In this document: one piece after another, positions 691 through 27,698 of the stretch | Layout of the letters: the number at the start of each line of letters is the position of its first letter | Position numbering within the stretch: the stretch's first letter is position 1 | UHGV virus genome: UHGV-0126338 | Reading direction: 5' to 3' (one strand) | Origin: a virus | Length of the DNA stretch: 34,728 bases | Made by a program: the position numbers and the translations under genes | The notes under the pieces: model-generated | What the model was told of the DNA's origin: nothing | The model's input: the letters and a program-made list of their open reading frames with translations, nothing else | Database searches by the model: none

Positions 691-1743
691 TTACGGGGTA
701 ATGCCAACCGCTGCCGCCACTTTGTCGCCACTTGGCAGCGTTGCCAGAGGATTGAAACGGAGCGCCGTTTCCAGATGATCCGGTGCCAGATGTGCGTAAC
801 GCATAGTCATTTTTATATCGTGGTGTCCGAGAATTTTTTGTAAGGCCAGAATGTTTCCACCCGACATCATGAAGTGCGCCGCAAACGTATGGCGCAGAAC
901 GTGTGTGAGTTGACCGCGAGGGAGCACGATAGACGTTTTTTCCATCACGGATAAAAATTGAAAATAGCAGTCTGTGAAGAAATTGAACCCATCAAGCGCC
1001 ATGATCTCTTCGTAAAGCTCTTTACTGATAGGGATACTTCTGTTTTTCTTCCCCTTCGTTCTTACAAAGGTAATTCGGTATTTGGTCACCTGTGAACGAG
1101 TAAGATTTACGGCTTCTCGCCAGCGCGCGCCTGTGCTTAAGCATATCTTAACTACCAGTGCTAGAATTGGGTCCTGACGTTTGCAATCAGCCAGTAATTC
1201 AACAATCTGCTCATGGGTAAGCCATGCCATCTCTTTTTCTGCGATGGTGAATTTTCGCATGTTCTCCAGTGGGTTCGGATACGACCATTCGCCCAGACGG
1301 GATAGTTCGCTAAAAACACTACTTAGATAGCTTTGCTCCAGGTTAATGGTGACCGGGCTTGCTCCTTTCTTCCATTTCTCGCTGAAGTAGATCTCGCCTG
1401 TCAGGCGTTTATCTCGATAGTGGGCAAACATTTTAGAGGTGAGATCGGTTGCAAGAGGATTGCCCAGAGCGCCAACCATCAGCAGCAATTTGTCATAGAC
1501 ATGCTGCCCAGCAGTCAGAGATTTACCATGTAGTTTGAACCATAGCTCAACCACGTCTTTCAGGGTTCGACGATCCACTGATTCGCCCAGCCATGGCTTT
1601 GATTCGGTTTCTTCCATAGTGTGACGCTCAAAAGCCAGAGCTTCGCCTTTGGTGGCGAATTGTTTACGCACACGACGCCCACTTCGTCCGGCGGGGTAAC
1701 ATTCGCAAAGCCATTTCCCTGTGGTGAGTTTTCGTACTGCCAT
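691..1743 (-). CDS. int: Phage integrase, tyrosine recombinase (P2 Int-like)
   Basis: ORF 691..1899 trimmed to ATG 1743 (MAVRKLTTGKW...); C-terminal catalytic region with R...HxxR...Y context (LTHVLRHTFAAHFMMSGGNILALQKILGHHDIKMTMRYAHL) matches the P2 integrase family from memory. Confidence 0.9.
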   Translation of the reverse strand: MAVRKLTTGKWLCECYPAGRSGRRVRKQFATKGEALAFERHTMEETESKPWLGESVDRRTLKDVVELWFKLHGKSLTAGQHVYDKLLLMVGALGNPLATDLTSKMFAHYRDKRLTGEIYFSEKWKKGASPVTINLEQSYLSSVFSELSRLGEWSYPNPLENMRKFTIAEKEMAWLTHEQIVELLADCKRQDPILALVVKICLSTGARWREAVNLTRSQVTKYRITFVRTKGKKNRSIPISKELYEEIMALDGFNFFTDCYFQFLSVMEKTSIVLPRGQLTHVLRHTFAAHFMMSGGNILALQKILGHHDIKMTMRYAHLAPDHLETALRFNPLATLPSGDKVAAAVGITP

Positions 1744-1931
1744 AAAAAATGCCCTCCAGTAGAGAGCATTTTTACTGTATGTATAACCAGTGTCAATGTA
1801 TGAAATCCTACGACCATACATCTCACTGAAGCCATAATGAAGTTGGCTATTCTTTTTGCTATGTGAGCATGTAACTTTTGCGGTTAACCTGCGGCTCATT
1901 TTTATTTTAGACGCAGATATAAAAGCAAAAG

Positions 1932-2123
1932 TTATCGTGAGTTTTTAGTACAGATTTTTTTGGATTTACTAATAGTTCCATCATTGCAAACGAATTTGCC
2001 ATCTGAGGTACAGTGAGAAACACCTCCCTTTTTCCCTGAGCAGGGATAATTTCTAGCATAGGTAGTTAGTGGGTTTAATAACAAAGAACATGACAAAACC
2101 ACAAAAAATACCTTACCAAGCAT
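1932..2123 (-). CDS. Small secreted Cys-containing protein (63 aa), hypothetical moron
   Basis: Strong RBS GGGAGG 6 nt upstream of ATG on minus strand; predicted Sec signal peptide [23 protein letters not shown]; ~40-aa mature part with 4 Cys; AT-rich relative to flanking genes; sits between cI and int. Confidence 0.5.
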
Positions 2124-2138: not shown

Positions 2139-2714
2139 CTATTTAACATACTTGACTGTTAAACTTATAATTTTACCAATTATTTCAATGTGTTCTATCT
2201 TACATTCGAAGGCTCTGTTTCCACCCTCGACGAAGATTCTTCCACCGGGTAAACGAGTAATGTCACGGATCGTTACTTCGCCATCAATACTTATTACCCA
2301 TTTACCATCACGTATATCATCAAATTCTTTATCACAAATAAATTCAGAATTGTTATCTGTGATGACAAAAGGTTTTTTAAACGTAGAGGGTAGAAATCCC
2401 TTATCAAAAATATAAAAACCGTCTTCACGCAAGGCACCATCAGATAATACATATTTAGCAACTTCCATAGTATTTGTATTACCTGAAGTTTGCTTTGAAC
2501 CATGTCCGGTTGTGAGCCAATTAAGCGAGGTGCCCGTTTCAAGGGCGCACTGGATTACCCATTCTGCTGGGAATGAGTCACGCATGTAGCGTGTGGCGAG
2601 TGTACTTTTAGAGATTCCTAAATGATCGCACAACGCCTGTCGAGTTTTGAATCCATAAGCTTCTACCATGCGCTCTATAGCGCCTCGTCCGCCTTTCTCC
2701 AAATTCATGGTCAC
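2139..2714 (-). CDS. cI: Prophage CI-type repressor (186 CI-like, N-terminal HTH)
   Basis: 191-aa ORF divergent from apl/cII; N-terminal HTH (QALCDHLGISKSTLATRYMRDSFPAEW); size and position match the 186-type immunity repressor. Confidence 0.7.
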   Translation of the reverse strand: MTMNLEKGGRGAIERMVEAYGFKTRQALCDHLGISKSTLATRYMRDSFPAEWVIQCALETGTSLNWLTTGHGSKQTSGNTNTMEVAKYVLSDGALREDGFYIFDKGFLPSTFKKPFVITDNNSEFICDKEFDDIRDGKWVISIDGEVTIRDITRLPGGRIFVEGGNRAFECKIEHIEIIGKIISLTVKYVK

Positions 2715-4888: not shown

Positions 4889-5742
4889 GCACCATCCTGA
4901 AATGGGCGGGAAATAAAACTGCCATAATGTCCGAACTGAAAAAACATCTTCCTGCTGGCCCGCGACTGGTTGAACCTTTCGCGGGTTCCTGTGCTGTGAT
5001 GATGGAGACGGATTATCCCAGCTATCTGGTTGCGGATATTAATCCTGATTTAATCAACCTCTATAAAAAGGTTGCCGCTGATTGTGAATCGTTTATATCT
5101 CGCGCCAGAGTTTTATTTGAGATCGCAAACAGGGAGGTGGCTTATTACAACATAAGGCAGGAGTTTAATTACTCAACTGAAATTACTGATTTCATGAAAG
5201 CGGTATATTTCCTGTATCTCAATCGTCACGGTTACCGTGGTTTATGTCGCTATAACAAGAGCGGGCATTTCAACATTCCCTACGGTAATTATAAAAATCC
5301 GTATTTCCCTGAAAAAGAAATTCGCGCATTTGCAGAAAAGGCCCAGCGAGCAACGTTTATCTGCGCCAGCTTTGATGAAACGCTGGCGATGTTGAAGGCG
5401 GGGGATGTGGTGTATTGCGATCCGCCGTATGACGGTACGTTTTCCGGCTATCACACTGACGGCTTCACTGAAGATGACCAGTATCACCTGGCATCTGTTC
5501 TTGAACATCGGTCATCAGAAGGACATCCGGTCATTGTTTCTAACAGTGACACATCCCTGATCCGTTCGCTGTATCGCAATTTTACTCACCACTACATCAA
5601 GGCAAAACGCAGCATCGGTGTGGCAGCTGGCGAGGGTAAATCAGCAACAGAAATCATTGCTGTTTCCGGGCCGCGCTGCTGGGTGGGATTTGATTATTCG
5701 CGTGGCGTGGATAGTTCTGCCGTGTACGGAGTACGTGCATGA
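4885..5742 (+). CDS. dam: DNA adenine methyltransferase (Dam-like, orphan)
   Basis: ORF 4825..5742 trimmed to ATG 4885 (RBS GGAGG; ATGA overlap with upstream stop); N-terminal ILKWAGNK motif and DPPY motif ([11 protein letters not shown]) read directly. Confidence 0.85.
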
Positions 5743-8153
5743 GTCATGCCGATATGAACAACTGCTGCGGCTTTAACGAAGCTGCCGCATCGTTCTCATG
5801 GAACAGCCCGAAAAAGGCCATTAACCCTTATCTGGACCCGGTGGAAGTTGCGCCGGTTTCTACGCTTTCAAACCTGATCACTCTGTACGCTGCCGATAAC
5901 GAGCAGGAACAGCTGCGCCGTGAGGCGCTGAGTGATCAGGTCTGGGAGCGTTATTTCTTTAATGAATCCCGTGATCCTGTCCAGCGCGAAATGGAACAGG
6001 ATAAGCTCATTAGTCGGGCAAAGCTGGCGCATGAGCAGCAGCGTTTTAATCCGGATATGGTCATTCTGGCGGACGTCAACGCCCAGCCTTCCCATATCAG
6101 CAAGCCGCTGATGCAACGTATTGAATACTTCAGCAGCCTGGGCAGGCCAAAGGCTTATTCCCGCTATTTACGTGAGACGATTAAGCCATGTCTGGAACGA
6201 CTGGAGCATGTACGCGACAGTCAGCTATCTGCATCTTTTCGCTTTATGGCAAGCCATGAAGGGCTGGACGGCCTGCTGATCCTGCCTGAAATGAGTCAGG
6301 ATCAGGTGAAACGCCTGTCCACCCTGGTAGCTGCGCATATGAGTATGTGCCTTGATGCCGCTTGTGGCGATTTGTATGCCACCGATGACGTTAAGCCAGA
6401 AGAAATCCGCAATACATGGGAAAGGGTGGCAGCGGAAACCCTGCGTCTGGATGTCATCCCGCCTGCGTTTGAGCAACTCCGTCGGAAAAGAAACCGCCGT
6501 AAACCCGTGCTCTATGAACTCATTCCGGGTTCGCTGGCGCGTATGTTGTGCGCCGACTGGTGGTATCGGAAATTATGGAAGATGCGTTGCGAATGGCGGG
6601 AAGAGCAGTTGCGTGCAGTCTGCCTTGTCAGCAAAAAAGCATCTCCTTATGTCAGCTATGAAGCCGTGATGCATAAACGTGAGCAGCGCCGTAAGTCGCT
6701 GGAGTTTTTCCGTTCTCATGAACTGGTGAACGAAGACGGCGACACGCTGGACATGGAGGATGTGGTAAACGCCAGCAGCAGCAACCCAGCGCATCGCCGC
6801 AATGAGATGATGGCCTGTGTTAAAGGTCTGGAGCTTATCGCGGAAATGCGCGGTGACTGCGCCGTTTTCTACACCATCACCTGTCCGTCACGTTTCCATT
6901 CCACGCTAAATAACGGCAGGCCCAACCCAACCTGGACAAATGCGACGGTAAGACAAAGCAGTGATTATCTGGTCGGCATGTTTGCTGCATTTCGTAAGGC
7001 GATGCACAAAGCCGGATTGCGGTGGTATGGCGTGCGGGTGGCTGAGCCGCATCATGACGGTACAGTTCACTGGCACCTGTTGTGTTTTATGCGCAAAAAA
7101 GACCGCCGCACCATCACTGCATTACTGCGTAAGTTTGCCATCCGTGAAGACCGCGAGGAGCTGGGCAATAACACTGGGCCGCGCTTTAAGTCTGAGTTGA
7201 TTAACCCGCGCAAAGGTACGCCAACAAGCTACATCGCGAAATACATCAGTAAGAACATTGACGGGCGTGGTCTGGCTGGCGAGATCAGCAAGGAAACGGG
7301 GAAATCCCTGCGTGATAATGCTGAATACGTTAATGCCTGGGCGTCTCTGCATCGTGTTCAGCAATTCCGCTTCTTTGGCATTCCGGGGCGTCAGGCTTAC
7401 CGTGAACTGCGATTGCTGGCTGGTCAGGCGGCAAGGCAACAGGGGGACAAAAAAGCAGGTGCGCCGGTACTGGATAACCCGCGCCTTGATGCCATTCTGG
7501 CTGCTGCTGATGCTGGTTGTTTTGCCACCTACATCATGAAGCAGGGTGGCGTACTGGTTCCCCGCAAATATCACCTCATCAGAACTGCTTATGAAATCAA
7601 CGAAGAGCCGACCGCCTATGGCGATCACGGCATTCGTATTTATGGCATCTGGTCACCTATTGCAGAGGGCAAGATCTGCACTCATGCCGTGAAGTGGAAA
7701 ATGGTTCGTAAGGCCGTTGACGTTCAGGAGGCGGCAGCCGACCAGGGCGCTTGCGCCCCTTGGACTCGTGGCAATAACTGTCCCCTTGCTGAAAATTTGA
7801 ACCAACAAGGGAAAGACAAATCAGCTGATGGGGATACCAGAACGGACATTACCCGCATGGATGACAAGGAGTTGCACGAATACCTGCACAGTATGAGCAA
7901 AAAAGAGCGCCGGGAACTGGCTGCAAGGTTACGCCTGGTGAAACCGAAACGGCGTAAAGACTACAAACAGCGAATTACAGACCATCAGCGACAGCAGCTC
8001 GTCTATGAACTGAAGTCCAGAGGATTTGATGGCAGCGAGAAAGAGGTCGATTTACTCCTTCGCGGCGGCAGTATTCCGTCAGGAGCAGGCCTGCGTATCT
8101 TCTATCGGAACCAGCGTTTGCAGGAAGATGATAAGTGGCGGAACCTGTATTAA
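5739..8153 (+). CDS. A: Replication initiation endonuclease (P2 gpA-like rolling-circle replicase)
   Basis: 804-aa ORF; motifs [11 protein letters not shown] and [12 protein letters not shown] match P2 A family from memory; start overlaps dam stop (ATGA). Confidence 0.9.
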
Positions 8154-8245
8154 TTACGCGGGTTAACAATTCGTGCTCTTAATAATACCAGGCATTTCAG
8201 GCTGATGAACGTAAAAAAACGTTTTACATCAGTAAGATTATTATA

Positions 8246-8265
8246 TACTGTAAATATAAACAGTG
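8246..8265 (+). promoter_or_regulatory. LexA (SOS) box
   Basis: TACTGTAAATATAAACAGTG = CTGT-N8-ACAG consensus (8248..8263 core) in an AT-rich promoter region ~45 bp upstream of ORF 8306; a second degenerate half-site follows (..TTATATATACAGTA). Confidence 0.7.
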
Positions 8266-8305
8266 GTTATATATACAGTATTACTTTGGTGTCATAGGAG
8301 GAAAG

Positions 8306-8494
8306 ATGCAGGACTATTTTTTGGAGTCTTTGAAGCTCCAGCGCATTGATTTTTTTCTTAAGCTTGTAGCGGCTAGTGAGTGTAGTGATGAAGAGAAGGG
8401 GCTGGCTCTGCAGTGGGTTTCTGAATTGACTGATGAACTCATGGCAAAAATCAGAACCCACGAATACAACCGCTCAATGGATGTCATCAGCTGA
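8306..8494 (+). CDS. Small hypothetical protein, SOS-regulated (possible antirepressor analogue)
   Basis: 62-aa ORF with RBS AGGAGG upstream, directly downstream of the LexA box and upstream of the DinI-like gene. Confidence 0.4.
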   Translation: MQDYFLESLKLQRIDFFLKLVAASECSDEEKGLALQWVSELTDELMAKIRTHEYNRSMDVIS

Positions 8495-8504
8495 GGTGAC
8501 CTTT

Positions 8505-8738
8505 ATGCGTATTGAAATAATGATCGATAAAGAGCAGAAGATTAGCCAGTCTACCCTGGACGCCCTTGAATCCGAGCTTTACCGCAATCTGCGCCCCCTG
8601 TATCCCAAAATGGTAATTCGCATCCGCAAAGGTAGCTCTAACGGTGTGGAACTGACCGGACTGCAACTGGACGAAGAAAGAAAACAAGTGATGAAGATTA
8701 TGCAGAAGGTGTGGGAAGACGACAGCTGGCTGCATTAA
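8505..8738 (+). CDS. DinI-family protein
   Basis: ORF 8433..8738 trimmed to ATG 8505 (RBS GAGGTG); 77 aa MRIEIMIDKEQ...WEDDSWLH resembles DinI (MRIEVTI...WESADDWF). Confidence 0.75.
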   Translation: MRIEIMIDKEQKISQSTLDALESELYRNLRPLYPKMVIRIRKGSSNGVELTGLQLDEERKQVMKIMQKVWEDDSWLH

Positions 8739-8897
8739 GAAAAGTTGCTGGCGTCTGAACTTGGTTCTGGCGTCAGCAAGGTTGAACAACGAGTACAGTG
8801 AGGCGTTAGGTGTGGCGTTTATTTGATGAGTGAACGCCCGTTCTGCGACAGGTTCGGAGATTAAGGTTGAAACTACGGGCAAAATACCATCTTTTTC

Positions 8898-9323
8898 CTA
8901 CTTAATTGAGTCCAGTAACAAGTTACAGTTACTCTCATTGTAGAGAGAACGAGCAATTAGTGTTACCTGCTTTCCATTCATTCCCGGCTTATCCCATAAC
9001 ACAGCTTCTTGCGACGCCACAAATTCAGCATAATCAATTATGCGTTGTTCGTGATCTGGTTCCTCATAGCCAAAGTATGAGAGCGCATCGTTGTAAGCGT
9101 GGTAAGCTGCTTTCTGTAATATCTTGATATCGGCTGTAGGTACTTGCTCCGTGTAGCTAGGATCTAATTGTGTGCTACTGCCATAGAATGCACATGAAAG
9201 GTAAGATATTGATTTCTATTGAGCTTTAGTTCCTTTCTCATAGTTTTTAGCTGTTACCGCCTGAACTGGGACGCTAACAAAGCTTGCAACCAGAATTAAA
9301 ATTAATACGTAAAAGCTTTTCAT
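8898..9323 (-). pseudogene. Amber-interrupted gene for a secreted protein (~141 codons, in-frame TAG at codon 36)
   Basis: Minus-strand ATG at 9323 with GAGG RBS; signal-peptide-like N-terminus MKSFYVLILILVASFVSVPVQA; in-frame TAG at 9218..9216; frame stays open to TAG at 8900..8898; translated by hand, absent from the ORF track. Confidence 0.45.
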
Positions 9324-9595
9324 TTTGACCTCAGCCGAAACGTTAGAGAGACTATCGAAATTTGTAAAACCCGTGGCGATTCAGTTTGAGATCCTCCCCC
9401 TTACATGATTTTTAATCAAATATATGCTTTTGTAAGCATACCTGTTAACCGAATTATTTATTTTTAGAGATCTTCCGACATACTGATTATGCCCGCTGAG
9501 GAGTTCACCTTGCGTAAGGTCCGATTCGCTTTACTCGTCTGTGCATGTCTATGCTGCATGAGATTGCATGATCGTTTGAGGATCGTTTTTGCTAA

Positions 9596-9623
9596 GGCCC
9601 GCCAGAACTGGCGGGCTTTTGCG
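9596..9623 (+). terminator. Putative rho-independent terminator
   Basis: GC-rich hairpin CCCGCCAG-aa-CTGGCGGG followed by CTTTTG. Confidence 0.35.
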
Positions 9624-9665
9624 TAGATCATGCACCTGCATGAAAACCACTACATAAAGCGGGCA

Positions 9666-9684
9666 GGCGTGGCGGGGATACGAG
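9666..9684. other. Putative cos site (19-nt cohesive-end region, P2/186 type)
   Basis: GGCGTGGCGGGGATACGAG shares the first 13 nt with the 186-type cohesive end as I recall it (GGCGTGGCGGGGA...); located between the replication region and portal gene Q, where cos lies in P2-like genomes. Confidence 0.4.
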
Positions 9685-9770
9685 CGCGCGCAACTCGAGA
9701 TAGTGTGATACTTATCTGAGAAATCTTAACAAGGTTCAATACAATACCCTTTCAAAAAAAGGGGAGTGTG

Positions 9771-10922
9771 ATGTTTGTAAAAAATAACTTTAATACAAAT
9801 AATTTCGATGCGGAATTAGTTGAAGCGATTGGTAATAGGCTGGAAAACAACCAATTTTCGGATGCAATACTTGCAGGAACCAAATATCTAACAACTTTGC
9901 TGCGTGAAAAAGGGCAATGTGAAGGGGATGGGGCTCAGCTTGTTGGTACTGTTTTGGGTGGACAATCACCTAGAATCCAAATTAATAGTCTTCAATCTGT
10001 ATCAGAGCAGGACGAACAGCGCGGATTTGAAGCACTATTAAGAGGCTACTATCAGTGTATAAGAAATCCAAGGACACATGACAATTTCCCTGATACAGAA
10101 GATTCCTGCATGAGAATATTGATCATGTTGGATACTTTTATTAAGTATTTAAAAAGAGATGTTGCTGAGTTCGATTACACAGCAATTCTTGAAAGAATTT
10201 ATGAGGTTCACTTTGTAAATAATTCTGATTATGCAGAAGCTTTAATATCACAAATTCCAGAAAAAAAACTACTAGATTTTTTCCAAAGTTTAATTTCTCG
10301 CTTTAATGAAAGGCCAACCAAGGAAATTGATTCTATATTCAAAGCAATAAACCAACGCTTTTCAGGAGAGGAAGAAAAAGCCGCAATGCGGTTGCTAGGT
10401 GATGAGTTACGTAAGGCTAGCAATAATGTTGAGTTTGCTAATGTATTTAGAATAATTAAGCCGAGCGCATGGAGAAATCTTCCTGATGATGTTTTAATTA
10501 GAATGGAAAATATAATCATCGAAGAGTGCAAAAAAGGATATTTGGATTTCTATTCTGATGCGACCAAAGGAGCTATAGGAACATGGGGTAATACATTTGG
10601 TAGCAAATTTAAAAGAAGAGGTGATCTTGGTGATGCTTTAATTGGATTGTTATATGATAGTTGGTATACGCAAAATTATGTTGCGAAATATTACGTTTTT
10701 TCAATCCCTTCTATCATTACTGATGATGTGAAAGTTAAGGAGTTAGCTGATGCTTTAGCTTATGCCACCATTGTAAATGGTGCTAAGCTTTTACGAACAA
10801 AATTGATTGATGCATGTAAAAATTATCCTGATAAGTTGAAAGAGCATCTTAGGGATGCTGTTCAGCAACGGATGGATAGTGATAAAAAATATGCGGAAGA
10901 ATTATTAGGTCAAATAAGCTGA
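9771..10922 (+). CDS. Cargo protein with N-terminal HEPN-like domain (R-x4-H motif; resembles TIGR02391-type family) and uncharacterised C-terminal domain; candidate anti-phage/abortive-infection effector
   Basis: ORF 9768(GTG)/9771(ATG)..10922; RBS GGGGAG; motif IRNPRTH (R99-x4-H104, nt 10062..10079); strongly AT-rich versus the flanking phage genes; sits between cos and portal gene Q, convergent with Q. Confidence 0.6.
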   Translation: MFVKNNFNTNNFDAELVEAIGNRLENNQFSDAILAGTKYLTTLLREKGQCEGDGAQLVGTVLGGQSPRIQINSLQSVSEQDEQRGFEALLRGYYQCIRNPRTHDNFPDTEDSCMRILIMLDTFIKYLKRDVAEFDYTAILERIYEVHFVNNSDYAEALISQIPEKKLLDFFQSLISRFNERPTKEIDSIFKAINQRFSGEEEKAAMRLLGDELRKASNNVEFANVFRIIKPSAWRNLPDDVLIRMENIIIEECKKGYLDFYSDATKGAIGTWGNTFGSKFKRRGDLGDALIGLLYDSWYTQNYVAKYYVFSIPSIITDDVKVKELADALAYATIVNGAKLLRTKLIDACKNYPDKLKEHLRDAVQQRMDSDKKYAEELLGQIS

Positions 10923-19727: not shown

Positions 19728-21524
19728 TCAGGATTGTGATAAATTTATTAAACATTGACAAAAATATTTAATGTCGTCACATATTTCATCTTTATTCATG
19801 TATTCCAGAACTTCATCTCGAGTAATTGAGAAATTATGTTTTAGTGAATTTTCGCCACTAATGAAAATTTCTTTTCCATGTGCGTCTTTTAAGGCTGCAG
19901 CTATATCTGTAGATGTTATCGAATCAGGGATAGCTAACGCATGCCTATCTCTAAAGAAGTTACGTATATCTTCTTCAGATGTCTCTGCAGCTCTTGCGAT
20001 GGCTGATATATCTAGAAAGTAATTTTCAATGTGTCTGCGACGCCATTTCATGGCTAAAAAATCACTATCGCCGTGATTAGTTGATTTATCTTTAAGATCT
20101 GCTCCTACAGAATGGTCGCTATCATCATCACGATCGCGCATGCTAATGGCTTTTAAGTCAGGAATTTCATTTTTTAATTGTTTGTATAATTGAAACCTTT
20201 CTGAAGATTTTCCAGTCCAAAGCCATGTGACAATATTTTTTGGCCATGTTAGTTCTAACTTTTTAAATATTTTTTTTAGGAATCTTTCATCGCTAACACC
20301 TTCAACAATCAACAATCTTTTGTCTTCGGTAAGTTTATGGATTTTGGGGCTAAAGATCGTGCCAATTCCACTTAATAGACCTATTTTTTCATTATCAGAT
20401 CCAAGGTATTTCCCTCTAGAATTTGATAGTGCCAAAATTTTCTGTGGTTCATAAGCCCTGATTAACTCAGTAGAGTGTGTTGCCAATAGGACCTGCTTTC
20501 CTTTTTTAATTGTTATCTCTTCTAAACGTTCAGTTAGATTTTTCTGTAATTGTGTATGTAGGTGAGCATCTGGTTCATCTAGTAGAATGACATTAAATTC
20601 TTCTGATAAGGCCAATGTATATACACTTAACCATTGAAGAAAACCGCTTCCTTCAACCATAATATCTCTAGCATTGAAGTTTTTGTGTTTTTTAAATTGA
20701 TAACCATTGACAACGCCAGCGACACATTCAATTTTTAAGTAACTATGATATTGTTCATTAAATGGAGTTACTTCAAGTTTTAAAGAAAAAAGGTCAAAGA
20801 GTGTTTTTTGTAATATTTCCCAAGGGTCTGTTTCCCTTAATAAATTAAGGTCTTTATTGGCGATTTTGTTTCGCCCTTCTTTTAACCTCCGGCGTTTGTT
20901 TTGATTCTCTAGGTGAATATCGTAAATAGAATTTCTGATTACTCCACCAGAAAGCCCCTGACCGATTAGTCGATTCCTCATTGCTGGGCTAAGACGGCTT
21001 TCTCGGTCTGTAATACCTGCAAATGGAGGGAGATAAGCTATCTGGGGTATATTCTCATTATTTGGAGAACCATCGTCATTCTGTATTTCTTGTAAAGCAA
21101 GGTTGCTAGATGTATTTTTTATAAATAATCTATCATTTGCTAATGATAAACCGATCTCTAAAAACTTCTCATTTTTTAAACTATCATCCCAAAAAAGCTT
21201 TATCTTTAGAGTATAACCATCATCTTCTGTTTGTTTTTGAGATTTTAAATTGGTCCATAAGTGGCTTAAAGACGGTATAAACATCGGCGTGAAATCGACA
21301 ATGCCTAGTCCGACACCTTGATTTGTCGCATTTTCAGTCCAACTCACTCTTCCTTTTTCAATTTCTAAAAGAGTCTTACAGAATTGCCACGTTGCCATTG
21401 CTTGCAGTAACGATGATTTACCGGAATTGTTCCCGCCGACCAGGAGGCTTAATTCGTCATTTAATTGTATTGTTGAGTTTTTATATTTTTTGAATTTCTT
21501 AAGCTCTACTTTTTTTATGTACAT
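19728..21524 (-). CDS. OLD-family ATP-dependent nuclease (N-terminal ABC-type ATPase + C-terminal Toprim), P2 Old-like
   Basis: Walker A GGNNSGKS (aa 30-37), signature-like LSGG (~aa 191), Walker B ILLDEPDAHLH (~aa 313-323), H-loop ATHS, Toprim motifs LLIVEGVSDE (~aa 405-412) and RDRDDD (~aa 463-468, nt ~20121..20138); 598 aa; AT-rich; antisense to the tail operon. Confidence 0.8.
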   Translation of the reverse strand: MYIKKVELKKFKKYKNSTIQLNDELSLLVGGNNSGKSSLLQAMATWQFCKTLLEIEKGRVSWTENATNQGVGLGIVDFTPMFIPSLSHLWTNLKSQKQTEDDGYTLKIKLFWDDSLKNEKFLEIGLSLANDRLFIKNTSSNLALQEIQNDDGSPNNENIPQIAYLPPFAGITDRESRLSPAMRNRLIGQGLSGGVIRNSIYDIHLENQNKRRRLKEGRNKIANKDLNLLRETDPWEILQKTLFDLFSLKLEVTPFNEQYHSYLKIECVAGVVNGYQFKKHKNFNARDIMVEGSGFLQWLSVYTLALSEEFNVILLDEPDAHLHTQLQKNLTERLEEITIKKGKQVLLATHSTELIRAYEPQKILALSNSRGKYLGSDNEKIGLLSGIGTIFSPKIHKLTEDKRLLIVEGVSDERFLKKIFKKLELTWPKNIVTWLWTGKSSERFQLYKQLKNEIPDLKAISMRDRDDDSDHSVGADLKDKSTNHGDSDFLAMKWRRRHIENYFLDISAIARAAETSEEDIRNFFRDRHALAIPDSITSTDIAAALKDAHGKEIFISGENSLKHNFSITRDEVLEYMNKDEICDDIKYFCQCLINLSQS

Positions 21525-25652: not shown

Positions 25653-26255
25653 ATGGAACAGGCTATTTTGGGAAAAGACGGTTACGCTTTAAATGATGGG
25701 GAAATCATCGTACATAACTATGATGGCGAAACGCGGGAATATATTTCTACATCAACTGAATATCTCGCTGTCGGAGTCGGTATCCCGGCATGTTCCTGTC
25801 TGGATGCACCAGGTACACATAAAGCTGGTTATGCAATCTGTCGCTCTGTAGATTTAAATTCATGGGAATATGTGCCAGACCATCGCGGTGAAACGGTCTA
25901 TAGCACCAAAACAGGAGAATCAAAAGAAATCACCGCTCCGGGTGATTACCCTGAAAATACAACCACTATCGCCCCATTAACGCCATACGATAAATGGGAT
26001 GGTGAGAAATGGGTGACCGATACTGAGGCACAGCATAGCGCCGCAGTAGACGCGGCAGAAGCACAGCGCCAGTCACTGATTGATGCTGCAATGGCTTCCA
26101 TTAGTCTGATTCAACTGAAATTGCAGGCCGGACGTAAACTGACGCAGGCAGAAACAACCAGACTTAACGCTGTGCTGGATTACATTGACGCGGTGACGGC
26201 AACAGATACCAGCACCGCGCCGGATGTCATCTGGCCTGAACTGCCGGAGGCGTAG
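25653..26255 (+). CDS. G: Tail fibre assembly chaperone (P2 gpG-like), active orientation
   Basis: 200 aa immediately after H; C-terminus ...APDVIWPELPEA. Confidence 0.8.
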   Translation: MEQAILGKDGYALNDGEIIVHNYDGETREYISTSTEYLAVGVGIPACSCLDAPGTHKAGYAICRSVDLNSWEYVPDHRGETVYSTKTGESKEITAPGDYPENTTTIAPLTPYDKWDGEKWVTDTEAQHSAAVDAAEAQRQSLIDAAMASISLIQLKLQAGRKLTQAETTRLNAVLDYIDAVTATDTSTAPDVIWPELPEA

Positions 26256-26670
26256 GCCATTCAATATCTGGCGCACTGGAGGTATCAACCAGCTCCAGTG
26301 CATCCAGATAATCCAGCCACAAATTATATTGCGCCAGTTCCTCACCTTTCAGACGACCAATAGCGGCTTTACCGGGCCATTGCTTACTGTTCATGTATTC
26401 GTTGGCCTGGTTAATTAGTAGCTGTCTTTCTGATTCAGTAATTTCAATAAGCTCTTCATGCGTGGGTGGAGGAATATCTGCCCACGCAGGCAGCCCATCA
26501 TCTCCGGCAATACGGATTTTTCCTTGTGGCGGTTCAGCCATAAACTCACTGATAATATTTTGATTTACTTCCTTAGCGTCTGATAAATCCCATCCCTCTG
26601 ATTTATATTTATCAATCATATCCACAGGGAAAAAAGCATTATGCCTTGCGCTATAAACATATTCGTTCAT
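26227..26670 (-). CDS. Alternative tail fibre assembly chaperone (silent orientation within the invertible segment)
   Basis: Minus-strand ORF 26227..26679 trimmed to ATG 26670; C-terminus ...APDIEWPTPPAVQAR parallels G; tail-to-tail overlap with G. Confidence 0.7.
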   Translation of the reverse strand: MNEYVYSARHNAFFPVDMIDKYKSEGWDLSDAKEVNQNIISEFMAEPPQGKIRIAGDDGLPAWADIPPPTHEELIEITESERQLLINQANEYMNSKQWPGKAAIGRLKGEELAQYNLWLDYLDALELVDTSSAPDIEWPTPPAVQAR

Positions 26671-26690
26671 ATAAATCACCCTGAATAAAA

Positions 26691-27077
26691 TTACTCACCA
26701 ACAGCCCACCAACTGTAATTCATCGATACCGTGTCGCTGGTTGATGACGTTCTGTAAGCAGAATTAAAGCCGGTTAACGTTGGGCCTTCTGCAGTCATCA
26801 CGAACCCTCGCCCAGCGCCTAAAGGCGCACCGCCATCACCAGAATGAGTAAGCATGGCGCAGTCCGCTTTTTTGGGGAAAGGGATGCTGAATGTAATTCT
26901 CATTGTTTGCGTCGATAATGTCGGCGTAACCGCACCACGACCATATTGCAGGATTTTCCCGTTGGGTAATTTCATCCATCCATCACCACTGGCAAAAGAG
27001 GCCATGTCCGGTATCTGATTTTCCCCTGTCCCCACATCCCGTTTTGCCGCTTCTCCCAAACCAACGTTTATGAAAAT
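26691..27077 (-). other. Promoterless alternative tail-fibre C-terminal cassette (alternative H variable part), in frame through the right crossover site
   Basis: Minus-strand frame encodes ...VGLGEAAKRDVG... across the site, matching ...YLGLGEGSALPVG... at the left site in H; ends at stop 26691. Confidence 0.6.
27052..27077. repeat. Right inversion crossover site
   Basis: TTCTCCCAAACCAACGTTTATGAAAA; inverted relative to 25141..25166; resembles hix/gix-type sites. Confidence 0.6.
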
Positions 27078-27131
27078 GCAGAGATAACGGCTAACAGGCA
27101 TCATCTCCGGTTTTTATTCAGGGGGATGATC

Positions 27132-27698
27132 ATGCTTATTGGCTATGTACGCGTGTCAACAAATGACCAGAACACCGATTTGCAACGCAATGCACTGAAC
27201 TGTGCGGGATGTGAGCGGATTTTTGAGGATAAAATCAGTGGCACCAAGTCCGACAGACCGGGGCTGAAAAAGCTGCTCAGGACACTATCGGCAGGAGACA
27301 CTCTGGTTGTCTGGAAGCTGGACAGGTTGGGGCGCAGTATGCGGCATCTTGTTACGCTGATAGAAGAGTTGCGTCAGCGTGGCGTGAATTTCCGAAGCCT
27401 GACTGACAGTATTGATACCAGTACCCCAATGGGCCGTTTCTTTTTTCATGTCATGGGTGCCCTGGCTGAAATGGAACGCGAACTGATAGTTGAACGTACC
27501 AGGGCAGGGCTGGCTGCAGCTCGTGCCAAAGGCAGAGTAGGTGGACGCCGTCCTAAGTTGACCACCGAACAGTGGGCACAGATTGGGCGTTTACTCGAGG
27601 CCGGAGAATCAATACAGCGTATTGCACTGATTTTTGATGTAGGCGTTTCTACCATTTATAGAAAATTTCCGGCAAATAAGATCAATGAATCCCCCTGA
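27132..27698 (+). CDS. Serine DNA invertase (Gin/Hin/Pin/Cin family)
   Basis: MLIGYVRVSTNDQ... catalytic serine motif and C-terminal HTH; near-identical N-terminus to Mu Gin from memory; ORF 27126..27698 with ATG 27132 preferred. Confidence 0.9.
   Translation: MLIGYVRVSTNDQNTDLQRNALNCAGCERIFEDKISGTKSDRPGLKKLLRTLSAGDTLVVWKLDRLGRSMRHLVTLIEELRQRGVNFRSLTDSIDTSTPMGRFFFHVMGALAEMERELIVERTRAGLAAARAKGRVGGRRPKLTTEQWAQIGRLLEAGESIQRIALIFDVGVSTIYRKFPANKINESP

Follow-up and report, generated by a model that had tools for sequence, protein, structure and literature searches.

Phage 186's Tum protein binds the cognate repressor and stops it from binding its operator (Lemire et al., 2011, PMC3121763, citing Shearwin et al., 1998), its expression is controlled by LexA, and its second half resembles DinI (PMC3121763). 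The tum region is split in two in Fels-2 and PSP3, with antirepressor activity assigned to the upstream PSP3 gene (PMC3121763), and induction of SopEΦ in the inflamed gut has been attributed to SOS-enhanced expression of the antirepressor Tum (review, PMC9827884). The GenBank note on PSP3 tumA reads 'similar to 5' end 186 tum; UV induction of prophage', and the Fels-2 gene next to STM2728 is annotated as similar to PSP3 TumB. Going by the title of their 2002 paper, Bunny et al. reportedly found a lexA null mutation to be lethal because of Fels-2. Here we describe the corresponding locus of UHGV virus genome UHGV-0126338, a stretch of 34,728 nucleotides (nt; hereafter, the window), which is a 34.7-kb P2-like (Peduoviridae) prophage whose positions 8150-8800 are 100% identical to the chromosome of Escherichia coli EC931. 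We found that a LexA-box promoter, a 62-amino-acid (aa) open reading frame (ORF62) and a 77-aa DinI-family gene very probably form the operon through which the SOS response induces a P2-like prophage of the 186/Fels-2 type, with tum split into tumA and tumB and with TumA acting on the CI repressor.

The module sits directly past the gpA stop codon, where an AT-rich promoter region, a LexA box, a Shine-Dalgarno sequence, ORF62, a 10-nt gap and the 77-aa ORF follow one another; this is the position of the 186 SOS operon (past gene A, the place to which GenBank assigns promoter p95, a LexA site and tum). Its parts are:

8223-8228, plus strand: putative -35 hexamer TTTACA, by analogy with the 186 GenBank annotation (p95 -35, TTCACA)
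8246-8251, plus strand: putative -10 hexamer TACTGT, inside SOS box 1, at 17-nt spacing from the -35 hexamer and the same hexamer as the p95 -10 of 186
8246-8265: SOS (LexA) box 1, TACTGTAAATATAAACAGTG, core CTGT-N8-ACAG at 8248-8263, lying 41 nt 5' of ORF62
8261-8280: SOS box 2, CAGTGGTTATATATACAGTA, core GTGG-N8-ACAG at 8263-8278, overlapping the box 1 core by one base (G8263)
8296-8302, plus strand: strong Shine-Dalgarno sequence AGGAGGA of tumA, read from the sequence and pointing to strong translation of this small gene
8306-8494, plus strand: tumA (ORF62), 62 aa, judged a homologue of the antirepressor half of Tum from 186, which is N-terminal
8493-8499, plus strand: GAGGTGA, a Shine-Dalgarno-like element for tumB that overlaps TGA (8492-8494), the stop codon of tumA
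8505-8738, plus strand: tumB, DinI-family, 77 aa, equivalent of the C-terminal half of 186 Tum and of the truncated 77-aa Tum that 186 makes from an internal start
8745-8779, plus strand: stable stem-loop directly 3' of tumB, without a U-tract (minimum free energy -21 kcal/mol, z = -2.45)

Two adjacent genes of ~60 aa and 77 aa here replace tum behind one SOS promoter, and the first of them matches described members of the split type: ORF62 is 98.4% identical to Fels-2 STM2728 and 88.7% identical to SopEΦ orf10, and is found 100% identical in dozens of Klebsiella, Escherichia and Salmonella peduoviruses. Compared with SopEΦ, tumA carries 0.56 synonymous (pS) and 0.07 nonsynonymous (pN) differences per site (pN/pS 0.13), which argues that ORF62 is a genuine gene under purifying selection. 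Because there are two ORFs, with tumB in the +1 frame, we regard the window module as the split variant and not the 186 form.

The relationship of ORF62 to 186 Tum emerged from family profiles. When 1.84 billion cluster representatives were searched exhaustively with HMMER, 66 relatives of ORF62 emerged with an expectation value (E) ≤0.001, nearly all of them stand-alone proteins of 55-75 aa, and the family shares the motif M-x-D-L-F-x-E-x-h-x-h-Q-R-I-x-L-h-x-R-L-V-A-x-x-x-C-x-x-x-D/E-K-x-L-A-L-x-W-h-x-E-L. A TumA profile made from 56 of the 66 plus a few close relatives (from SopEΦ, Cronobacter phage ESSI-2 and Escherichia phage ESSI2_ev015), and containing no 186-type sequences, matched residues 5-48 of full-length 186 Tum (31.4 bits, E 7e-12 as a single comparison), the protein of Erwinia phage ENT90 (E 7e-10) and two Yersinia proteins (E 1e-16 and 7e-14). 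Family against family, hhalign aligned TumA with the 186 Tum N-terminal family at 96.1% probability (E 3e-9; columns 3-44 to 3-44, in register), a significance reached only with the profile from 50%-cluster representatives, an earlier run with shallow alignments (sequences ≥80% identical) having given 22.6%. Yersinia phage proteins link the two subfamilies, and many proteins closely related to the N-terminal half of 186 Tum also stand alone, at 63-78 aa, under the name 'Tum protein' in their sources. By these comparisons, ORF62 and the antirepressor half of 186 Tum, at its N-terminus, are homologues. A preliminary description of this DNA had placed a 62-aa ORF downstream of the LexA box, as we find, and had reasoned that so short a first gene would leave any antirepressor function to a divergent small protein; the small protein stands, given this homology, whereas the shortness is no novel divergence and is instead what the split form leads one to expect.

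It could be argued that ORF62 has some other function, as a tumB regulator or an unrelated small protein, and that its likeness to Tum is uninformative. The protein has no Pfam or NCBIfam family, falls in PHROG 698 (phrog_698, 'unknown function'; E 4e-38) and is ~20% identical to 186 Tum; its AlphaFold2 model is a two-helix hairpin (helices 2-23 and 28-61; predicted local distance difference test score 88.6), for which a PDB sequence search and Foldseek returned only generic helical hairpins with E above 1. We consider this alternative very improbable, since the segment aligned between ORF62 and Tum is the whole conserved core of both subfamilies, in register, since position, LexA control and CI type are all common to the window and 186, and since the near-identical Fels-2 and SopEΦ genes are handled as tum in the experimental literature (PMC3121763, PMC9827884).

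The LexA box lies where the preliminary description had put it: TACTGTAAATATAAACAGTG has three mismatches from the consensus TACTGTATATATATACAGTA, is the sole such site in the window and arose in 0 of 100 shuffles. The bare CTGT-N8-ACAG pattern, also a single occurrence in the 34.7-kb window, is weak evidence alone (0.45 chance matches expected per window; at least one in 35 of 100 shuffles). Conservation tells more: such a box stands 37-64 nt 5' of the homologous small ORF at nine of the ten peduovirus loci compared (the window, 186, PSP3, Fels-2, SopEΦ, the Yersinia phages YenM_201.16 and YenM_324, ESSI-2 and ESSI2_ev015); at the tenth, ENT90, TACTGTATATCTGTACAGTA lies just 5' of the true start codon, which makes ten of ten loci with a LexA box, and the intergenic DNA flanking the boxes is unalignable. 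The ENT90 record itself (HQ110084.1) annotates the start of the Tum-like gene (1159-1398) 5' of the box, with the frame running through it; translation probably begins instead at the ATG of locus position 1201. ESSI-2, ESSI2_ev015, ENT90 and YenM_324 carry a LexA box and a TumA-like ORF without a dinI gene, and because these stand alone in four peduoviruses we take the small protein to be the constant element; the DinI module, by this distribution, is accessory, being fused, separate or absent.

A second SOS box overlaps the first and extends directly past it, so the operator is double, a point absent from the preliminary description, as was the prior description of the split arrangement. To sample the operator without bias, 80 viral contigs were picked by identical TumA protein alone; between them they carry 19 different tumA DNA sequences. 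Of these contigs, 75 have an intact box 1 and ~75, on reading the operators by eye, an intact box 2 core (72 of 80 under a stricter pattern that also requires the ACAG of box 1), with variation in box 2 concentrated mid-spacer. A single box is present in 186, PSP3, ESSI-2, ESSI2_ev015 and the Yersinia phages. The two 16-bp LexA cores of the window, with their one-base overlap, can be aligned to colicin operators, which makes this a colicin-type double operator: a 55-nt operator query matched 987 plasmids, many of them small and mobilizable, and in the three plasmids inspected the match lies ~43 nt 5' of a gene for colicin E1 (cea), pesticin (pst) or a Klebsiella tRNase bacteriocin (klebicin), with box 2 in register with the operators of all three. 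Among IMG/VR viral contigs, at least 120 matches to the double-box pattern turned up, 95 of them followed by a TumA-family ORF, whereas a control pattern with one extra base in the box 2 spacer gave 37 matches, none AT-rich and none near tumA. Two LexA dimers bind colicin double boxes cooperatively (PMC2994835).

The second gene is the DinI-family gene that the preliminary description had named. TumB passes the Pfam gathering score for PF06183 (81.5 bits vs. a cut-off of 24.2; E 5e-23), belongs to phrog_189, matches the E. coli DinI structure 1GHH (E 4e-6) and is 40% identical over 75 aa to residues 71-145 of 186 Tum (E 2e-23). It fails the NCBIfam equivalog for DinI proper (NF007893; 41.3 bits vs. 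a cut-off of 111), so we regard it as a DinI-like paralogue and not the chromosomal DinI. The gene is under purifying selection (pN/pS 0.12 at pS ~0.5). The GenBank record of 186 annotates nested tum products, a 146-aa Tum ('inhibits CI DNA binding') together with a shorter form of 77 aa that starts at an internal GTG ('modulates SOS induction'), and because of these and the similarity of TumB we read 186 Tum as an N-terminal module joined to a DinI module. In the window the corresponding genes are 10 nt apart, which suggests translational coupling of tumB to tumA, and tumB follows tumA at the same gap in 78 of 80 related viral contigs.

The tumB frame is also open for 72 nt 5' of its ATG, overlapping the tumA 3' end (a 101-aa ORF at 8433-8738, +1 frame), an extension treated here as coincidental. 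Production of a fused Tum by stop-codon readthrough is ruled out by the +1 frame of tumB, and programmed frameshifting was rejected as well, no X XXY YYZ slippery site in the 8433-8494 overlap and no prfB-like context having been seen on reading the sequence by eye. A terminator scan called no terminator for the operon, the stem-loop at 8745-8779 included, and this structure is possibly a partial terminator or a 3' stabiliser; the DNA block common to related phages ends ~15 nt past it, at ~8793, the edge of a variable region.

The repressor on which the operon would presumably act lies in the immunity region.

2139-2714, minus strand: CI repressor, 191 aa, presumed TumA target, with PF07022 (Phage_CI_repr) and PF16452 (Phage_CI_C)
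CI N-terminal helix-turn-helix domain: 58-98% identity among seven phages with Fels-2-type TumA, 38-44% to 186 CI
CI C-terminal domain: 25-55% identity among the same seven phages (one pair at 75%), 26-33% to 186 CI

The window CI matches the solved 186 CI structure 2FJR (E 3e-30), and the immunity region is thus 186-type and not P2-type; after CI come an Apl-sized ORF, a CP76-type CII, a Dam methylase and then gpA. The proposal that SOS induction works as in 186, through a LexA-repressed antirepressor operon, gains support from the 186-type CI, the CP76-type CII, gpA and the shared operon position. Induction might instead proceed by RecA-stimulated self-cleavage of CI, as in lambda, with an incidental LexA box, and the CI C-terminal domain does show a weak Peptidase_S24 similarity (E 0.007). 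At 16.5 bits this match stays under the Pfam threshold of 23.3, however, inspection of CI by eye found no Ala-Gly site and no GxSM motif, and the LexA box is kept at ten diverged loci and is unique in the window. The CI of 186, which the window protein matches, is not known to be cleaved. As far as its domains tell, CI is a 186-type repressor without a supported protease signature, and on the sub-threshold S24 score, the 186-type CI and the conserved LexA box we rejected lambda-type autocleavage, to which we give a negligible chance.

The CI proteins that accompany this TumA are diverse. Among phages with a TumA at least 89% identical to that of the window, CIs are 36-59% identical overall, bar one pair at 87%, and the window CI is ≤57% identical to any CI in a collection of 50,697 phage records, so that by sequence it is an immunity type unrepresented among deposited phages. 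It might then be supposed that the operon is SOS-regulated here without being the induction trigger: TumA would miss this diverged CI, and the module would do no more than modulate the SOS response of the host in the manner of DinI, or act on co-resident prophages. The window CI is 39-54% identical overall (25-42% in the C-terminal domain) to the CIs of phages whose TumA is identical or nearly so, and antirepressors acting in trans on other prophages have been documented for Salmonella (PMC3121763). Against this, the N-terminal domain of the window CI is 69-77% identical to those of other phages with Fels-2-type TumA vs. 41% to that of 186, as would fit a TumA target that has been kept; tumA and CI occur as a pair in hundreds of viral contigs and 1126 E. 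coli genomes; and tumA is under strong purifying selection, which speaks for a phage function that is being maintained. We therefore judge this supposition unlikely. Since the N-terminal domains are conserved and the C-terminal domains have diverged, TumA type tracks the CI N-terminal domain, a pattern that hints at an antirepressor that would block DNA binding by contacting the N-terminal domain. The correlation comprises eight sequences, and two confounders bear on it: linkage, and the fact that N-terminal domains are in general better conserved.

We reasoned that an SOS-induction operon acting through TumA would work as follows. In an undamaged cell, host LexA on the double operator (8246-8280), covering the -10 region, would keep the operon off; DNA damage would lead, through activated RecA (RecA*), to LexA self-cleavage and to transcription of the operon. 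TumA, the helical hairpin, would then bind the 186-type CI and stop it from binding its operator, CI would leave pR, the early lytic promoter would fire and the prophage would excise and replicate. TumB would act on RecA filaments, modulating the SOS signal, rather than on CI. What the window itself shows is how the sequence is built, which homologies it has, that it is conserved and that both genes are under purifying selection; that LexA binds, that TumA is an antirepressor and what TumB does would carry over, by analogy, from experiments on 186, PSP3, Fels-2 and SopEΦ.

Several points weigh against this proposal. The experimental support comes from those four phages and not from this prophage, and the assignment of antirepressor activity to the PSP3 gene is a personal communication, cited second-hand (PMC3121763). 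BLASTP finds no alignment of ORF62 with 186 Tum or PSP3 TumA, so that the ORF62-Tum homology rests on profiles and intermediates, and PSP3 TumA is marginal against the TumA profile (E 0.005). The promoter hexamers are weak: a generic sigma-70 scan called no promoter for the operon, and TACTGT agrees with TATAAT at three of six positions. Finally, recognition of the window CI by TumA is assumed, because this CI is so distant from every CI in the phage collection.

The 651-bp module is present in 1126 of 5426 complete E. coli genomes (~21%) and in at least 593 IMG/VR contigs. The split tumA-tumB arrangement is already described (Fels-2, PSP3, SopEΦ), and the sequence is essentially that of Fels-2; with that precedent, and with a place in about a fifth of complete E. 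coli genomes, the arrangement is ordinary. In E. coli, the Prokaryotic Genome Annotation Pipeline labels the genes 'hypothetical protein' (tumA) and 'DinI-like family protein' (tumB), and some records name the TumA family 'levan regulatory protein'. Because the family has no Pfam or NCBIfam model and is labelled hypothetical, a very common type of prophage has its likely induction switch hidden from routine annotation, and recognising tumA predicts SOS inducibility by the LexA route, for example by DNA-damaging antibiotics, and not by repressor cleavage. The main value of the finding is practical, in annotation; the double operator and the CI N-terminal correlation are testable refinements and no new principle. 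Two aspects could conceivably be undescribed, though we would rather doubt it: a colicin-type double LexA operator at Fels-2-type tumA promoters, and one near-invariant TumA serving many CI immunity types by way of a conserved N-terminal DNA-binding domain. If these hold true, the double operator may share ancestry with colicin promoters and may give late, high-threshold induction confined to a subpopulation, and one damaged cell could co-induce heteroimmune P2-like prophages.

Elsewhere in the window, the following features were recorded:

691-1899, minus strand: integrase
1932-2123, minus strand: 63-aa ORF lying between int and cI; its product begins with a hydrophobic stretch, includes several cysteines and belongs to no Pfam family, and it may be a small secreted or lipoprotein cargo gene
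5739-8153: gpA replication endonuclease
8794-9767: ~1 kb between the tum operon and the Hypoth_Ymh gene, without a long ORF; on the minus strand it has a 35-aa ORF (9216-9323), whose N-terminus resembles a signal peptide, and a promoter-like site (9448-9419)
9768-10922, plus strand: 384-aa Hypoth_Ymh protein (PF09509, E 3e-23; PADLOC PD-Lambda-3_B, E 2e-14, and Aga_HEPN, E 2e-9)
19728-21524, minus strand: 598-aa AAA_15/AAA_21 ATPase, on the opposite strand within the late-gene block, with a DUF3226 segment below the Pfam cut-off
26227-27698: Caudo_TAP tail-fibre assembly gene and gp53-like tail-fibre C-terminal gene (minus strand), adjoining a 190-aa ORF (27126-27698, plus strand), a layout reminiscent of an invertible tail-fibre segment

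Given the PADLOC matches and its place in the variable slot between tumB and the portal gene Q, the Hypoth_Ymh gene is probably anti-phage defence cargo, and the gene for the 598-aa ATPase has the look of further cargo of the defence type, from the OLD/AbiEii-like ATPase family. Rfam gave no match within 8100-9800, and PADLOC gave none for TumA or TumB.

Set beside the described systems, the window module shares with 186 a LexA box over the promoter -10 and past gene A, a 186-type CI as target, and a TumA and TumB that correspond to Tum residues ~3-48 and 71-145, respectively. It differs in that 186 has a single fused 146-aa Tum where the window has two ORFs split by a TGA and 10 nt, one LexA box where the window has two overlapping ones, and an orf97 with no homologue in the window, and in that TumA is only ~20% identical to the Tum N-terminal half. 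PSP3 likewise has a split pair (60 aa and 77 aa) behind a LexA box; however, its TumA has diverged greatly from ORF62, its two genes are 3 nt apart and its LexA box is single. The Gifsy GfoA/GftA antirepressors resemble the module in being part of a LexA-repressed operon in which a DinI homologue accompanies a small antirepressor that inactivates an uncleavable repressor (PMC3121763); unlike it, they are lambdoid and have the reversed order, dinI first, and a sequence relationship to TumA was not seen, no comparison having been aimed at it. Colicin-type operators align with the window over 35 nt without gaps, CTGTA..ATA.AA.CAGTGGTT.TAT.TACAGTATT being invariant in the window, Fels-2, SopEΦ, ColE1, pPst and the Klebsiella bacteriocin plasmid, whereas the window operator drives a prophage antirepressor and not a bacteriocin, and sequences beyond the operator are unrelated. 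The closest match is to the split tum of Felsduovirus, in Fels-2 (STM2728/STM2726.1) and SopEΦ (orf10/orf11): their partner CIs are only 39-43% identical overall to the window CI, and past tumB they carry other ORFs as cargo where the window has the Hypoth_Ymh gene, but the module lies past gene A in all three, with the same double SOS operator, a DinI-like second gene and a tumA-tumB gap of 10 nt in Fels-2 and 11 nt in SopEΦ.

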